Origin: Escherichia coli
GTDB taxonomy: Bacteria; Pseudomonadota; Gammaproteobacteria; Enterobacterales; Enterobacteriaceae
Assembly (NCBI RefSeq): GCF_003019035.1
Contig: NZ_CP027448.1
Length of the DNA: 64,000 bases
Direction: 5' to 3' (one strand)
Position 1 is the stretch's first letter, and the number at the start of each line of letters is the position of its first letter. Position numbers: made by a program. Of this stretch, positions 1-6,000 are shown in pieces.

Positions 1-3000
1 CAATGGTACCCGTGTTGAAAGCACCGGAGATGATAACGTCCGTACCCGTCTGGGCGTGAAAACCTGGATTAAAGGGCACAACAAAATGGATGACGGTAAG
101 GCACAACAAAATGGATGACGGTAAATCACGTGAATTCAGTCCGTTTGTGGAAGTAAACTGGTTGCACAATACCCGTGATTTTGGTACCCGCATGAACGGT
201 GTAACGGTACATCAAGACGGTGCCCGTAATATCGGAGAGGTCAAAACTGGTGTGGAAGGTCAAATAAATCCCCATCTGAACCTGTGGGGGAATGTGAGAG
301 TTCAAGTTGGTGATAAAGGGTATAACGACACCTCAGCCATGCTGGGTGTGAAGTATACATTCTGAGTCTAATTAAAAGAGCAAAGCCCTGTAATTCTTGC
401 AATTACAGGGTTTACCAGAGAAGGCAGTCTGCATTGAACGAGCTTTTTGGTAGCGCAGTTAATAAGGTGTTTTACTCCGGAACCACCGAAGAACCTGTTT
501 AGGATTTTGTGTAAATGTCTTTTCTCAGAAGTTACCGTCCAGGCGGTCACCGAACTCGATAATAAAGCGGCTCATTGCCATACACCTGTCCCTCAATGGC
601 CTTTTCATGACCTTCTATTTTCAGTATCCTCTGCAAACATCATAGGATCGCGGAGTTGTAATTTAAGCTGCTCGCCAAAACCGTATTGATATTTACTGAG
701 AGGTCAGAGCAACTTTCTAGGGCAACAGATCGCGTACCCGGTTTGCCGGCCAGTCCTGGATATGCTCAATGACGTAACGCAGCCATTTTTCCGGTTCCAC
801 ATTGTTCAGATGGCATGTGCCGATCAGCGAGTACAACACCGCCGCATGTTCGTCATTTATACCTTTGCATTTCTGCTCTTGGTTGTACCATAGAGTGAGC
901 CTGCTTACCCAAGCGCTGACTTCCTCTATTCTCCGAAAACAATTATCTAACCACCATGGACAATACTTAATCTTCTGGAAGGGTGATTCGAAATAAGGGG
1001 GGATTATTGCAGGCCTGAAGATGGGAATAATAATTTAATATACTAAGTGTGTGCATTTTTGCCAGCAACTTACACCCCAACATTGCCCCCGTCATTATCA
1101 GAATGAAGGACCAGATTGCGGATGAGCATTTTTCATTCCATATATCACGTTGAAGCCGTTCTTCCACATACTGTGCTGATTCTTTCGTAAATACTTCTGC
1201 AGCAATCTTTTAGGTTATAAAGAACGATAATCATATGGGGATAAAATGTTGCCCCTTACCCCATGATGGAGCATATAGCTAATATCCCAGTAACCCACCT
1301 GTTTTGAGGCTATAGTTTTAAGGGCTTCAGGTCGATGTAACGGTATTCACGGATTCCCCCTGTCAATTTGTTAACATATTTTAACATGCTATAAAAGGTC
1401 GATTTAGAGATGATATAAATCCCCTGTCAGCAAAAGTCTGAACGATAATTTTTGGAGACAATAATGCCAGCTTTGGAAAGTTACATACATCAGGTTGCGT
1501 AAGAGTTGACAGGAAGAAGATTTGTCATACATGCTCGCAGCAATACTGACTGTCTTCTGTTACGGAGATACGTACTGTTGTGGGTAAAATTGGCATGCAG
1601 GTATTGATATTGGTTATTTTTTTTGTTATTAGATATTTCTGTGGTGAATGGATTTAACTTTTTTGGCAGGATATCAGTGACCTGTTGATCATGAAATCCC
1701 TTTGAATACTAGAGTGATAAAATATTTTGGTTTGTTTTTTTGTGAAATTCTGCAATTTATAATCTACTTAGAAGACGGTTGCAACAGTATTATTCCGGAG
1801 GATCTGAATTTCTGAGGTTTATGAGTTTTGTCACAATGGCAGGACTCTGGTTTGTTGTCAGGCTTACTACTGACTGGATGTATAATTATTACTGACCATA
1901 TTCCAAGATAAGTACCTCATATGTCGGGAACCATAATAAAAATCAGAACAGATGAAAATGTTTTGTTCGCAGCTATTCACCGCATCGAATGGTTGTTTGA
2001 TACATTCTCTTCTGTCTGCCTGTCTTTTTCCGGAGGAAAAGATTCCACAGTGCTTTTCCATCTTGTGGCTGATGTGGCCCGCAGGAAGAACCGTCGTTTC
2101 TCTGTATTGTTCATTGACTGGGAAGCCCAGTATCAGTGCACCATTGAACATATTCAGAAAATGCGGGAAATGTACCGGGATGTGACGGATACCTTTTACT
2201 GGGTGGCACTTCCCCTGACCACGGTTAACGGTGTCTCGCAGTTTCAGCCGGAATGGATATGCTGGGAACCCGGTGTGACATGGGTTCGCCAGCCACCGGA
2301 AGAAGCTATTACTGATATGGAGTATTTCCCCTTTTATCAGTATGCCATGACATTTGAAGAATTTGTTCCCGCATTTTCTTCCTGGTTTGCCAGTAACAGG
2401 TGTGGAGTGGCAGTGCTGACCGGTGTCCGAGCAGATGAATCCCTCAACCGCTTTATGGGACTGGTGTCCCAGCGCAAACTGAGATATGCCGATGATAAAC
2501 CCTGGACTACGGCATCGCCTGAAGGGTTTTACTACACCATGTATCCGTTGTATGACTGGAAAGCCCGCGATATATGGATATATAACGCCAGGACCCGTGC
2601 CATCTACAATCCCCTGTATGACCTGATGTACCGCGCTGGCGTGCCGTTACGTAACATGCGTGTCTGTGAACCCTTTGGTCCGGAACAGCGCAAGGGACTA
2701 TGGCTTTATCATGTTCTGGAGCCGGAAACGTGGGGCCGAATGTGTGAGAGGGTGTCCGGTGCTGCCAGCGGAGCACTTTATGCCAACGAAAGCGGTGCCT
2801 ATTTTGCCCTGCGTAAACGTATATCAAAACCAGCCCATCATACCTGGCGCAGCTATGCGATGTTCCTGCTGGATGTGATGCCGGAAAGAACGGCAGAACA
2901 TTACCGTAACAAGATAGCTATCTACCTGCGCTGGTATCAGACCCGGGGATTCCCGGATGACATCCCGGATGAACAGGAAAATGACCTGGGGGGCCGGGAT

Positions 3001-6000
3001 ATCCCGTCCTGGCGACGTATCTGTAAGACACTAATAAAGAATGATTTCTGGTGCCGGACCCTCTCCTTCAGTCCGAACAAACCCCGGCACTACGAACGTT
3101 ACCTGCAGCGTATGAAAGAAAGGAGAAAGGAATGGGGGATTCTGTGACACCGGAGGTGGAAGTATTGAGCAACATGATTCGTCAGTATTTCAGTCAAGTG
3201 CGAACTGATTCAGAAACCATACAGGCTCTGAATCATCTGCGCAGAGTGCTTCATGAGGTCAGTCCTTTTGCACAGGAGCCTGTGGACTGCGTACTGTGGG
3301 TGAAAGCGGATGAGGTGGTGGCCAACGATTATAATCCTAATGTCATGGCGCCAGGTGAGAAGAAGTTACTCAAACAGTCTCTGGAGAAAGACGGTTTCAC
3401 ACAACCAGTGGTTGTGTCGGAGGAGAAGAACCATTACCTCGTGGTGGATGGTTTTCATCGTCAGCTGCTGGGCAGGGAAGCAGACACAGGGAAACGCTTT
3501 AAGGGCTGGCTACCTGTAGCCTGTATTAATCCGGAGAGAAAGGGACAGGCATCACGTATTGCTGCGACCATTCGACATAACCGGGCCAGGGGGAAAAATC
3601 AGATAACCTCAATGTCTGATATTGTCAGAGACCTTTCGCGCCTGGGCTGGTCAGATGAACGAATTGGCACTGAGCTGGGTATGGACCGGGATGAAGTGCT
3701 GAGACTGAAGCAGATTAGCGGGCTGATAGAATTGTTTCAGGAAGACGAGTTCAGTCCGGCATGGACGGTTCGCTGAGACTTTCATATATGTGTATTATTT
3801 CAGGAAGTTGATTTTTTGAGCAGAAAAAAGAATACTCCGGATGACGGAATACACCATGCACATAAGCTGGAGATTGCTGGTTACTAGTGCTGATATCAGT
3901 ATCGATGAGCCTGTTTACAATTCTGTGTCAATGCCTTTCTCAGAAGTGACCGTCAAGGCGGTCACCGAATTCGATAATAAAGCGACTCATGGCTATCCGC
4001 CAGTCCTGAAGTGGCATCGTCCATTTCTGTGAGGCTGACTGGATAGCCAGCCACACCAATTTTTTCACCGATTCATCTGTCGGGAACACTTTCCGTTTCT
4101 TTACCGCATGTCTGATGACGCTATTCAGCGATTCGATTGCGTTAGGCGGGGTACCATGAAAGACATCGACACGTGGAGGGTTTACATAAATATCAACGGC
4201 CATAATTTCATGTCCATCTGAATCATACCCCAGCGATTCTGCACCGGGATTTGTAATACGTACAGGGTCAGACATTCGGTATCTCCTTCATCCTCTGAGG
4301 AAAACAAATGAAATAACTGCTTGTATACATGGATACATATACAGCATTAATTTATTAAGGAGAAAATGGCATGTCAAGACTTAAGGATAGTGATTATCAT
4401 TAGCGTGAAGAGGTGTTATACCGTTCAGAAAGCCGGCTGACGCTGTGGCAGCATCACAGTCTGAGTATTCTCTGGTGCAATACAAAAACCGGACTTTCCC
4501 GTAACAACAGACAATGTTACGGGAAAAGTAACAGAACTGAGCCACGAAATATCTCAGTACCTGAGATGCATAAAAACACCGTACATATGTTTCTCAAAAG
4601 GGGGATGATCGTTATCCAGCCATTTCGGTGGATCGGTATGCAGAACACCAATCTGCTTCATGCCGGTATGCTGCCTGGATTTTCTCGCGCAGTAATCATT
4701 GTCTTCATATCGTAATACGCGATAATTTAAAAGTGATAGCCACTGACATTAAATCAATCCCTTACGAGCTGAGATGGTTAAATAATACGCTAAACGAATG
4801 GAAGGGACTTCCCCTGGATATGCACCTGATTAACACTTGTGCAATCATGGGGTAAACATAGCCCCGGAGAGATTCGTTATGACCATCACTACTATCGGCA
4901 TCGATCTTGCTAAAAATGTGTTCGCTGTTCATGGTGTTGACCAAAATGGCAAAACCGTTCTGGTGAAATCCAGAGTAACCCGCGCAGCTCTTCCCGGGTT
5001 GATTGCAGGTTTACCGCTCTGTGTTATCGGGATGGAGGCGTGCTCCGGGGCTCATTACTGGGCAAGACTGTTTCGGCAATATGGTAATGAGCCGCGTCTG
5101 ATGGCCGCTAAATTTGTATCTCCATACCGCATGGCCGGTAAATCAGGGAAAAATGATGCAGCTGATGCTCAGGCTATCTGCGAAGCGGTTCGTCGCCCAC
5201 ATATGCGGTTTGTTCCAGTTAAGGACGAGAGCCGGCAGGCGATGCAGTGTCTGCATCGTCCCCGACAGGGTTTTATCGAAGAGAAAATAGCAACATATAA
5301 TCGTCTTCGAGGGTTGATATCAGAGTTCGGCGTCATCGCCCCACAAGGTACAGATGCCCTGCGGCACATAGTTTCTGCGCAGAAGAACTCTTTACCTCTT
5401 CAGGTTCAGCAATGTGTTGATGATTTGCTGGAACATGTTGATCGCATTGAAGCTAACATCACTGAATATGACCAAATTTTGCCCCGCATAGCCAAAACAG
5501 ATCACCGCAGTCAGCGGCTGATGAAGCTAAAAGGAGTTGGTCCTACAACTACCTGTGCTCTGGTTGCCTGTATCGGTAATGCACATGATTTTAAAAATGG
5601 ACGGCAACTGGCGGCCTGGCTGGGGTTGATTCCATCACAATACAGCAGCGGCAGAAAGTCGAAGCCAGGCAGGATAACAAAAGCCGGTGATTCGTATCTG
5701 CGAACGCTTCTGGTACAGGGAGCTCGTTCAGTACTGATTGGCGCAGAGAAAAGGACTGACTCATTCAGTCGTTGGGTCTGTTCACTAGTCGAACGCAGAG
5801 GATACTGGCGCGCTGTTGTGGCCATCGCCGCCAAAAATGCAAGACTGTGCTGGGCATCATTGCATTACGGTGATGATTTCAGGCTGTATTCAGCCAGCTA
5901 AAGCAGGAAGAAACCGTATGACCATCTGATCTGCAACTCGTTGATGATAAATGGTTAGACCCCGTGAGGTATATCTGATTATTGTACAGGATATACGTAT

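Follow-up and report, generated by a model that had tools for sequence, protein, structure and literature searches.

The IbrA/IbrB pair of an Escherichia coli hemolysin plasmid: a misnamed PP-loop enzyme and a ParB/Srx-fold partner that probably act on DNA

The DNA considered here, hereafter called the window, is a stretch of 64,000 nucleotides (nt) of Escherichia coli contig NZ_CP027448.1 (RefSeq assembly GCF_003019035.1) and forms part of a large hemolysin plasmid of the type found in bovine and Shiga toxin-producing E. coli (STEC). Close to its left end lies an intact ibrA-ibrB operon, the mobile counterpart of the E. coli core pair ybdN-ybdM. IbrA is a PP-loop ATP-utilizing enzyme of the structural clade that holds phosphoadenosine phosphosulfate (PAPS) reductase, FAD synthase, and CysD, and it is almost certainly not the PAPS reductase that its RefSeq name proclaims. 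IbrB combines a ParB/sulfiredoxin (Srx) N-terminal domain, with its nucleotide pocket retained, and a helix-turn-helix (HTH)-type domain. The pair probably acts on DNA using ATP. We give a probability of about 0.4 to a reading in which IbrB would target DNA and IbrA would carry out an ATP-dependent adenylylation or modification of nucleic acid, prophage activation being a downstream effect.

The locus was already known, as RefSeq annotates the same pair on near-identical plasmids, and in itself it is ordinary: an island copy is present in about 40% of the complete E. coli genomes and ybdNM in nearly all of them. The interest lies in the family, which pairs a misnamed, cysteine-less PP-loop enzyme with a ParB/Srx-HTH partner and is self-contained and mainly phage-borne. 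The PAPS reductase name could mislead metabolic annotation, for example that of viral "sulfur auxiliary metabolic genes." If the pair does modify DNA, it would represent a new epigenetic or anti-restriction chemistry, testable in K-12 through ybdNM; if it is an activator, it would be a regulator that connects mobile elements with the expression of prophage and virulence genes.

Two overlapping genes conserved as a unit

The ibrA gene (positions 1921 to 3147, plus strand) encodes a 408-residue protein with PAPS_reduct and DUF3440 domains, of the PP-loop ATP pyrophosphatase/adenylyltransferase type, and ibrB (3132 to 3776, plus strand) encodes a 214-residue protein with a ParB/Srx fold and an HTH-like domain; the genes overlap by 16 nt. 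At the junction (3120 to 3147, plus strand), the sequence reads as the ibrB Shine-Dalgarno motif AAGGAG at 3120 to 3125, the ibrB ATG at 3132, and the ibrA stop codon TGA at 3145 to 3147. Since the ibrB start, with a Shine-Dalgarno motif of its own, sits 16 nt inside ibrA, the two genes are translationally coupled. The longest ibrB frame opens with a GTG at 3051, but the ATG at 3132, which yields the 214 residues, is the likelier start and is the one used by RefSeq on plasmid NZ_CP062205.1 (98.7% identical). RefSeq names the first product "phosphoadenosine phosphosulfate reductase" and, on the sister plasmid, the second "IbrB-like domain-containing protein." An earlier note on this DNA had proposed an IbrA/IbrB-like pair between 1921 and 3776, and the identification is borne out by this name and by 91% and 86% identity to the proteins named IbrA and IbrB of Escherichia phage PhiR5_2. 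The pair thus has the features of the family, namely, a PAPS_reduct plus DUF3440 polypeptide, an adjacent co-oriented IbrB-type gene, and close identity to a named pair. The island copies show about 89 to 94% protein identity to the window pair, with the same overlapping two-gene architecture and the same domains. YbdN and YbdM of K-12 are 58% and 55% identical, share the overlapping architecture, and keep all of the motifs. They are chromosomal and have a dedicated adjacent repressor (the LysR regulator CitR/YbdO), whereas the window pair has neither a repressor nor a conserved neighborhood.

BLAST comparison of window positions 1 to 6000 with three chromosomal island copies and one phage copy places the start of homology at 1919 to 1938 (ibrA ATG at 1921) and its end at 3770 to 3893 (ibrB stop at 3776). 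The conserved unit is exactly two open reading frames (ORFs), ibrA and ibrB; no promoter region is shared among these copies, and the neighboring genes differ in every context compared. In the O145 island, the pair is accompanied by a PerC-family regulator and aerobactin genes; in strain ABU 83972, where it lies near cob and pks, by genes for glycosyltransferases and a TonB-dependent receptor; and in a third E. coli strain, by a graveyard of insertion sequences (ISs). Antirepressor genes precede ibrAB in PhiR5_2, fecIRA and iroBCDN accompany it on a Klebsiella hypervirulence plasmid, and in K-12 ybdNM lies between citR and ybdL. Iron-uptake loci (iucABCD/iutA, a TonB-dependent receptor, sitA, and fecIRA with iroBCDN) lie within a few kilobases of the pair in four independent enterobacterial contexts (L002, L003, L004, and L099), which may reflect either the mosaic makeup of islands or a genuine association.

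The ratios of nonsynonymous to synonymous substitution rates (dN/dS) against the island and phage copies are 0.066 to 0.094 for ibrA and 0.058 to 0.084 for ibrB, at dS values of 0.40 to 1.25, and these low values show strong purifying selection on both genes. Against the closest plasmid copy, ibrB gives a dN/dS of 0.32, on few substitutions. Both window proteins keep all invariant and near-invariant family residues except at IbrA position 96, which is the family's only cysteine-rich column (a cysteine in 84% of 75 homologs). Because this residue is an alanine in both the window IbrA and K-12 YbdN, the cysteine can be dispensed with, at least in these members from enterobacteria.

The two genes are almost always adjacent, and they are coinherited throughout bacterial phyla and the phages of these. 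Of 80 IMG/VR loci obtained with an IbrA profile, 74 have an IbrB-type gene adjacent to and codirectional with the IbrA gene, and the metagenomic contigs show the same overlapping A-then-B order, as overlapping or abutting genes also do in other relatives of the pair. When 1,514 neighboring ORFs from 88 viral loci were clustered, the only universal families were the two Ibr families. Phages are the main reservoir: tblastn of phage genomes found IbrA relatives in 224 records and IbrB relatives in 226, with the same host breakdown for both (Flavobacterium, 90; Mycobacterium, 60; Streptococcus, 21; Arthrobacter, 12; and Bacillus, 8), and the phage carriers span Actinobacteria, Firmicutes, Bacteroidetes, and Proteobacteria. 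Published surveys also list the pair from glacial viromes and from a virus of Asgard archaea. When 1.84 billion representative proteins were searched exhaustively, there were 328 clusters at E ≤ 1e-30 and 1,872 at E ≤ 1e-3.

Within E. coli, there are three tiers of copies. Plasmid copies with more than 90% nucleotide identity are rare (48 records); island copies with 80 to 90% identity are present as a full pair in 2,074 of 5,426 complete genomes; and ybdNM, at 60 to 80% identity, gives a match in 5,414 of the 5,426. Relatives of IbrA occur in 866 PLSDB plasmid records, among them Klebsiella (323), Escherichia (215), Ralstonia (129), Shigella (123), and Salmonella (34); the Shigella matches among those listed cover only about 12% of IbrA and are remnants. 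The pair is carried by Klebsiella hypervirulence plasmids and STEC plasmids as well as, in the form of ybdNM, by the K-12 core genome, and an identical IbrA is encoded on one other E. coli plasmid.

A cysteine-less PP-loop enzyme and its ParB/Srx-fold partner

IbrA consists of an N-terminal PAPS reductase-like domain (residues ~1 to 240), in which a Trp-rich insert spans residues ~96 to 145, and of a basic helical DUF3440 domain (~241 to 408). Pfam recognizes PAPS_reduct (E = 4.9e-17) and DUF3440 (E = 1.9e-33), with a sub-threshold PP-loop match, and the protein falls in PHROG 2302 (6.3e-85). The PP-loop-like α/β fold of the PAPS reductase clade is present. Comparison with solved relatives scored 15.4 for the PAPS domain of human FAD synthase, 15.3 to 13.7 for adenosine phosphosulfate (APS)/PAPS reductases, 14.3 for CysD, 13.5 for yeast Fad1, 12.1 for TilS, and 11.2 for TtuA. 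Only ~165 to 177 residues of IbrA align with the FAD synthase, APS/PAPS reductase, and CysD relatives, which leaves the helical DUF3440 half without a counterpart of solved structure; those enzymes lack the Trp-rich insert, the 170-residue basic DUF3440 domain, and the obligate ParB-like partner of IbrA.

In an alignment of 75 diverse homologs, the conserved positions include SGGKDS (37 to 42), D66, E68, G168-x-R-x-x-E-S-x-x-R177, P209-x-Y-D-W, D217, Y229-N230, and Y233-D234, together with W112, W115, W121, and R123 in the Trp-rich insert and R247, R277, W309, and D375 in DUF3440. The PP-loop and the acidic/Arg motifs are invariant, and the enzyme is catalytically intact. In contrast to a true CysH, which carries a C-terminal catalytic cysteine in an ECGLH-type motif, no cysteine is universally conserved among the 75 homologs (position 249 is a cysteine in only 43%). 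The NCBIfam CysH/CysD equivalog models score IbrA at 27 to 34 bits, versus cut-offs of 154 to 413 (154 to 254 for the CysH models). Because no cysteine is universal and the scores are far below the cut-offs, the RefSeq name is unjustified, and a true CysH or CysD was rejected.

FAD synthase and CysD move AMP from ATP onto a phosphate or sulfate oxygen, and more distant PP-loop relatives adenylate tRNA base carbonyls. IbrA may by analogy be an ATP-dependent adenylyl-transfer or activating enzyme, in which DUF3440 would be a polyanion-binding domain. This domain is basic across the family, with median net charges of +5 and +2 and isoelectric points (pI) of ~9.4 and 8.8 for its two parts. Some homologs (P0388, 631 residues; P0333; and P0348) are split by insertions of ~240 residues at or near Y229-N230, an intein-like position, although Pfam finds no intein domain in them at E ≤ 1e-3. 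Among ten long IbrA representatives, Pfam finds no extra domain except one ABC_tran fragment. Domain fusions were discarded as a functional clue: hidden Markov model (HMM) scans yielded just two short chimeric ORFs made of IbrB and IbrA pieces (P0354 and P0349), which look like deletion or assembly artifacts and not like true fusions.

IbrB (PHROG 2159, 6.7e-84) begins with an N-terminal helical hairpin (residues ~7 to 43), followed by the ParB/Srx-fold nucleotide-binding domain (~48 to 135), the Arg-rich motif TIRHNRARG, and, at the C terminus, an HTH-like domain. Among 50 aligned sequences, 20 positions are invariant, all of them present in the window protein. The family motifs are ANDYNPN and VVDGFHR, both in the ParB/Srx domain, DG(Y/F)TQP, and TIRHNRARG, after which comes the C-terminal segment GMDxDEVLRLKQI. 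Against solved chains, the IbrB profile matches ParB, Noc, and Spo0J with E values of 1.1e-7 to 3.6e-4 and SbnI with 2e-3. Comparison with solved relatives scored 9.7 for KorB, 9.6 for pNOB8 ParB (141 residues), 9.2 for PadC, 9.1 for the DNA-binding domain of KorB, 9.1 for sulfiredoxin, 8.8 for SbnI, 8.8 for Spo0J, and 8.1 for free serine kinase. It is because of the matches to KorB, ParB, PadC, sulfiredoxin, SbnI, and Spo0J that we describe IbrB as a ParB/Srx-HTH protein. Spo0J/ParB, Noc, KorB, VirB, and PadC likewise join a ParB/Srx N-terminal domain to an HTH, whereas sulfiredoxin, SbnI, and the serine kinase share the fold of the N-terminal domain. The N-terminal hairpin and the family-specific TIRHNRARG motif are additions of IbrB to this common plan.

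IbrB also departs from the partition proteins. ANDYNPN aligns with ParB box I and VVDGFHR with box II; box II of IbrB is the DGxHR signature of the enzymatic/nuclease branch, in contrast to the GERR of the ParBs that form CTP clamps. The C-terminal dimerization domain is missing, the model ending after the HTH-like domain, and no ParA-type partner gene or partition context adjoins the pair; parS sites were not searched for. The protein is acidic overall (pI ~5.7). The pairing of a PAPS reductase-clade PP-loop enzyme with a ParB/Srx-fold protein, as the earlier note had it, is confirmed by Pfam, profiles, and comparison with solved relatives; of its phrase "ParB-like nuclease," the fold and the DGxHR motif stand, while "nuclease" is a label only.

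Possible action of the pair and rival explanations

Reportedly, Sandt et al. observed in 2002 that ibrA and ibrB jointly switch on the eib genes of prophages. Further mentions of the family in the literature searched are at the level of annotation or expression, in keeping with the earlier statement that no biochemical activity has been assigned. In STEC adhering to epithelial cells, island ibrB and the adjacent perC are induced 2.4- to 7.6-fold. CitR/YbdO represses ybdNM, which is upregulated together with cys genes in a citR mutant. In E. coli cells with a CTX-M-15 plasmid, the level of YbdM protein is up 29-fold, and overexpression of YbdM lowers the growth rate by 10% (PMC8764527). In planta, a Ralstonia rprR mutant shows upregulation of IbrAB together with the adhesin RadA (bioRxiv 10.1101/2025.06.11.659228). 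The last two cases are unexplained ties of the family to plasmid carriage or adhesins.

In the reading that we favor, IbrA and IbrB would work on DNA as a complex. IbrB would bind or target DNA, possibly gated by a nucleoside triphosphate (NTP), and recruit IbrA, which would adenylylate a group on the nucleic acid, either a phosphate-type oxygen, as the analogy of FAD synthase and CysD suggests, or a base carbonyl, if TilS-type PP-loop enzymes are the better model. Either the nucleic acid would then carry a covalent modification, or the intermediate thus activated would be processed further, in some phages, by accessory enzymes. In phages, the modification might mark or protect replicating DNA ahead of packaging. 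In strains with island or plasmid copies, the altered DNA might change how silencers or repressors read prophage promoters, so that eib activation would be a downstream effect on these proteins.

Several features point toward nucleic acid, namely, the basic DUF3440 domain, the ParB-type N-terminal domain and HTH that IbrB shares with KorB, Spo0J, and pNOB8 ParB, and the match of IbrB to the ParB-like N-terminal part (37 to 145 of 633) of phrog_498, which is annotated as a DNA methyltransferase. The best functional analogy for how IbrAB might work is DndC/DndB, in which a PP-loop ATP pyrophosphatase with a ParB/Srx-superfamily partner acts on DNA; as in IbrAB, DndC/DndB (and likewise SspD and BrxP) bring together a PAPS reductase-like PP-loop enzyme and a ParB/Srx protein with a DGxHR-type motif. 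DndC, SspD, and BrxP differ from IbrA, which has no full-length match to the DndC or BrxP models and lacks conserved cysteines for an iron-sulfur cluster.

The phage neighborhoods agree with an action on DNA. Recurrent neighbors of the pair are SNF2, DEAD, and DnaB helicases, a Sak4-like annealase, RecE-like and PD-(D/E)XK exonucleases, and NinG, which together form a replication/recombination module. Such modules and the region immediately upstream of the terminase are the commonest homes of the pair in the phage data, and in cultured phages of three phyla it belongs to a block just upstream of the packaging genes. The gene order is ParB-like, IbrA, IbrB, methyltransferase, HTH protein, and TerL in Arthrobacter phage LiSara; ParB-like, IbrA, methyltransferase, and IbrB in Bacillus phage PBC5; ParB-like, IbrA, IbrB, TerS, and TerL in Faecalibacterium phage Taranis; and IbrB, IbrA, and portal in Flavobacterium phage FCL-2. 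In Mycobacterium phage Compostia, whose cluster we take to be lytic, a ParB-like protein (g1) is followed by IbrA (g4), IbrB (g5), and the terminase (g6), with 4-nt overlaps, one of them between IbrB and the terminase gene, and the annotation contains no small terminase. FCL-2 is strictly lytic and has no integrase or repressor, and therefore lysogeny regulation cannot be the primary role of the pair. The larger block of Actinobacteria and Firmicutes phages (L007:1-4474, L009:3325-8326, L010:5319-8872, and L012:5309-10788) comprises the ParB-like protein, IbrA, IbrB, and often a phrog_11826 methyltransferase. The methyltransferases of LiSara and PBC5 belong to this one PHROG and are generic class I S-adenosylmethionine (SAM) enzymes, and the extra ParB-like proteins, like IbrB, match the N-terminal part of phrog_498. 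The arrangement in Compostia had suggested IbrB as a small terminase subunit, an idea that we rejected as a general role in view of the separate TerS of Taranis, the HTH gene before TerL in LiSara, and the many copies far from packaging genes. Streptococcus phage CHPC1230 and PhiR5_2 hold the pair in moron-like slots.

Additional partners occur in subsets of phages. A third protein, here called X (~125 to 146 residues), was found in 54 of the 80 IMG/VR loci with an HMM built from 21 seeds. Its motifs are WE, SCEHxL(T/S)N, and NRIAWLGQ, and its gene usually lies between ibrB and ibrA (L015 to L065 and others; for example, L016:5597-6019, L044:3384-3809, and L022:2968-3363). In about 20 loci, X and IbrB lie in one frame uninterrupted by stop codons, with apparent X-IbrB fusions at L042:4785-5987 and L051:4859-5989. 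Protein X has no match in Pfam, PHROGs, or Protein Data Bank (PDB) sequences, and the HMM found none in the window, the E. coli loci, or the cultured phages examined. At L074:7278-7649, in an actinophage-type locus, the gene inserted between those of IbrA and IbrB codes for an EctC-like cupin (PF06339, E = 1e-44), with candidate copies of similar size recognized by HMM in the same position at L087:7548-7922, L088:6707-7081, L089:4532-4915, and L073:3305-3700; Mycobacterium phage Gaia gp104 is labeled "ectoine synthase/ParB multidomain protein" in GenBank. In Microbacterium phage Hendrix, glycosyl-, methyl-, and acetyltransferase genes precede the IbrA homolog. The cupin of some actinophage loci and the Hendrix transferases are company typical of modification pathways. 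A broader proposal, on which we are more doubtful, is that IbrA/IbrB and YbdN/YbdM constitute a very widespread nucleic acid modification system of phages, plasmids, and enterobacterial chromosomes. In it, a cysteine-less PP-loop adenylyltransferase would be guided to DNA by its ParB/Srx-HTH subunit, yielding a modification chemically distinct from methylation, phosphorothioation, and 7-deazaguanine insertion. Protein X, the EctC-like cupin, and the methyltransferase would extend the system in many phages, and prophage activation would follow from an incidental influence on DNA-binding proteins of the host.

Several points weigh against DNA modification by the pair. A modification has been demonstrated for no family member, and the substrate cannot be deduced from sequence. 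The acidity of IbrB is unusual for a DNA-binding targeting subunit, and it is charge alone that speaks for nucleic acid binding by DUF3440, which no solved structure resembles. A position at the head of a late operon is equally expected of a late-gene activator, the DNA specificity of the methyltransferase partner is unproven, and the eib phenotype reportedly goes back to a single paper, that of Sandt in 2002. Moreover, the E. coli version lacks protein X, and therefore the phage and enterobacterial systems may differ in action.

Among the alternatives, IbrB may be a ParB-like, DNA-loading activator or anti-silencer of prophage and late-operon genes, with IbrA as an obligate enzymatic partner that, for example, makes or consumes the nucleotide ligand or modifies IbrB, without itself acting on DNA. 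ParB-like VirB and KorB do regulate transcription, eib activation is the only genetic phenotype known for the family, and several phages carry the pair at the head of the late/packaging operon, the usual site of late activators. The PerC-family regulator that follows the pair in the O145 island and is coinduced in STEC, as well as the AT-rich local leader, would fit the same role. We nevertheless find an activator somewhat unlikely: IbrB has DGFHR rather than the GERR of the CTP-switch ParBs KorB, Spo0J, and Noc, and it lacks their type of C-terminal dimerization domain; the invariant catalytic residues and strong purifying selection of a 408-residue enzyme are hard to reconcile with a mere cofactor; many phage copies sit inside replication/recombination modules and not at operon heads; and Taranis already has a RinA-like late activator beside the block. 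The target might instead be RNA or protein, IbrA binding tRNA or another RNA through its basic domain (as do TilS, TtuA, and NcsA) or AMPylating a protein target, for instance a repressor or a protein of the nucleoid, with IbrB as an NTP-dependent accessory or kinase. The opposite charges of DUF3440 and IbrB and the matches of IbrB to the enzymatic ParB/Srx members Srx (9.1), SbnI (8.8), and SerK (8.1) would suit such a scheme, and a translational effect could conceivably raise the expression of AT-rich prophage genes. It is unlikely, however, in that IbrB retains an HTH-like domain alignable with those that bind DNA in KorB, Spo0J, and ParB, the genomic company is DNA metabolism and not translation, and no consistent link to tRNA or RNA-processing genes is seen, the tRNAs nearby in Hendrix being a single case.

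The earlier note had also linked the domain pairing to defense-type modules, and an anti-phage or anti-plasmid system akin to the phosphorothioation systems Dnd, Ssp, or type 4 BREX would be formally analogous through DndC/DndB. IbrA does give weak matches in PADLOC to BrxP (28.5 bits, E = 1.1e-7) and DndC (17.7 bits at best, E = 3.4e-4), the pair sits on islands and plasmids, and a candidate defense cluster in one preprint includes a PAPS reductase partner. Against this, the BrxP match is limited to residues 28 to 96 around the PP-loop, IbrB has no PADLOC hit, conserved cysteines for an iron-sulfur cluster or a sulfur relay are absent, and no cysteine desulfurase, DndD/E, PglZ, or restriction partner occurs in ~95 loci with relatives; nor are DndA/D/E, SspABC, or BREX genes linked to the pair in the window or related loci. 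No effector gene travels with the module, which is overwhelmingly phage-encoded, with one carrier strictly lytic, and the presence of the core copy ybdNM in 5,414 of 5,426 E. coli genomes is atypical of defense islands. With no system-level match in PADLOC-DB v2, whose library dates from 2023 and so covers systems known up to then, we rejected defense as the primary reading and regard it as very unlikely. Least probable of all is true sulfur assimilation, with IbrA as a PAPS/APS reductase or sulfurylase subunit serving as an auxiliary metabolic gene: the Pfam match, the RefSeq name, and the rise of ybdNM with cys genes in the citR mutant speak for it, but the NCBIfam scores, the lack of a conserved C-terminal catalytic cysteine, an obligate partner that is a ParB/HTH protein and not thioredoxin or CysN, and a phage context of DNA metabolism make it highly improbable.

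Origin and surroundings of the plasmid copy

Upstream of ibrAB, the window contains what remains of a type Va autotransporter, the C-terminal end of its barrel (90 to 365, PF03797), together with transposase fragments; downstream, a transposase remnant is followed by an IS110 element. The earlier observation that the pair lies next to autotransporter remnants rather than in a prophage is correct for this locus and does not extend to the family, for which phage modules are the commonest homes. A non-coding AT-rich leader (1000 to 1920, GC 0.36 to 0.42) precedes ibrA and presumably harbors a local promoter; it has no homology to the island or phage copies, and its promoter consensus counts are no higher than those of shuffled sequence. 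Terminator scans likewise gave counts no better than shuffled sequence.

The ibrAB segment is flanked by 80-nt direct repeats at 521 to 600 and 3936 to 4015 (both plus strand; 84% identity, 3,415-nt spacing), found by a repeat search and, for the left copy, also by BLAST. The right copy overlaps a minus-strand ORF (3940 to 4275) that matches, by position, a transposase pseudogene fragment of the sister plasmid, and for this reason both repeats look like IS ends. An IS256 family transposase is among the features under the matches of related plasmids to window positions 1 to 4145; the ORF may accordingly be a fragment of this family, and the left repeat, its origin taken from its right-hand partner, is a probable IS remnant. 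The flanking repeats suggest IS-mediated capture of ibrAB. Downstream of ibrB, a 117-nt tail (3777 to 3893, plus strand) is still homologous to the O145 island: window positions 1938 to 3893 align by BLAST with L002 positions 12001 to 13953, the tail with 13834 to 13953. The PerC-family coding sequence of the island starts at 13912, so that the homology covers its first ~40 nt, and it stops just upstream of the IS-type remnant. Because the homology enters the start of the perC-like gene and then ends, the plasmid copy seems to descend from an ibrAB-perC arrangement from which perC has since been lost, which suggests that an island fragment was captured and truncated through IS activity.

With this origin, the copy might be a functionless passenger, caught between IS elements and not yet decayed. 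The IS-type remnants and repeats around it, the loss of the perC-like gene, the lack of a conserved promoter region, promoter scans at chance level, and the ibrB dN/dS of 0.32 would all be compatible with this explanation. We hold it to be quite unlikely, as both ORFs are intact with their invariant residues kept, an identical IbrA occurs on another plasmid and relatives on the 866 plasmid records, and the autotransporter and transposases around the pair have decayed but the pair has not.

The regulation of Eib-type adhesins, to which the module had been linked, finds no local counterpart because the neighboring remnant is a classical type Va barrel and not an Eib-type trimeric adhesin. No eib-type gene was seen among the window ORFs of at least 250 residues, which are only partly annotated. 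As a local target, the only intact adhesin found in the window was discounted: it is an AIDA-type autotransporter ~49 kb away (52892 to 57609, minus strand; AIDA, Pertactin, and Autotransporter domains), adjoined by a TibC-like heptosyltransferase. The cargo in the window further includes hlyCABD, ompP, and a KatP-type catalase-peroxidase (39867 to 42080, plus strand); the AIDA-type autotransporter and KatP are virulence-plasmid cargo unrelated to ibrAB. The largest unexplained gene of the window is a 1,645-residue ORF (30070 to 35007, plus strand) with no Pfam match at E ≤ 1e-5. Closer to the pair, at 6196 to 6953 on the minus strand, overlapping genes encode a GNAT acetyltransferase (161 residues) and a DUF1778 protein (94 residues), which presumably have the architecture of TacT/TacA-type toxin-antitoxin systems.

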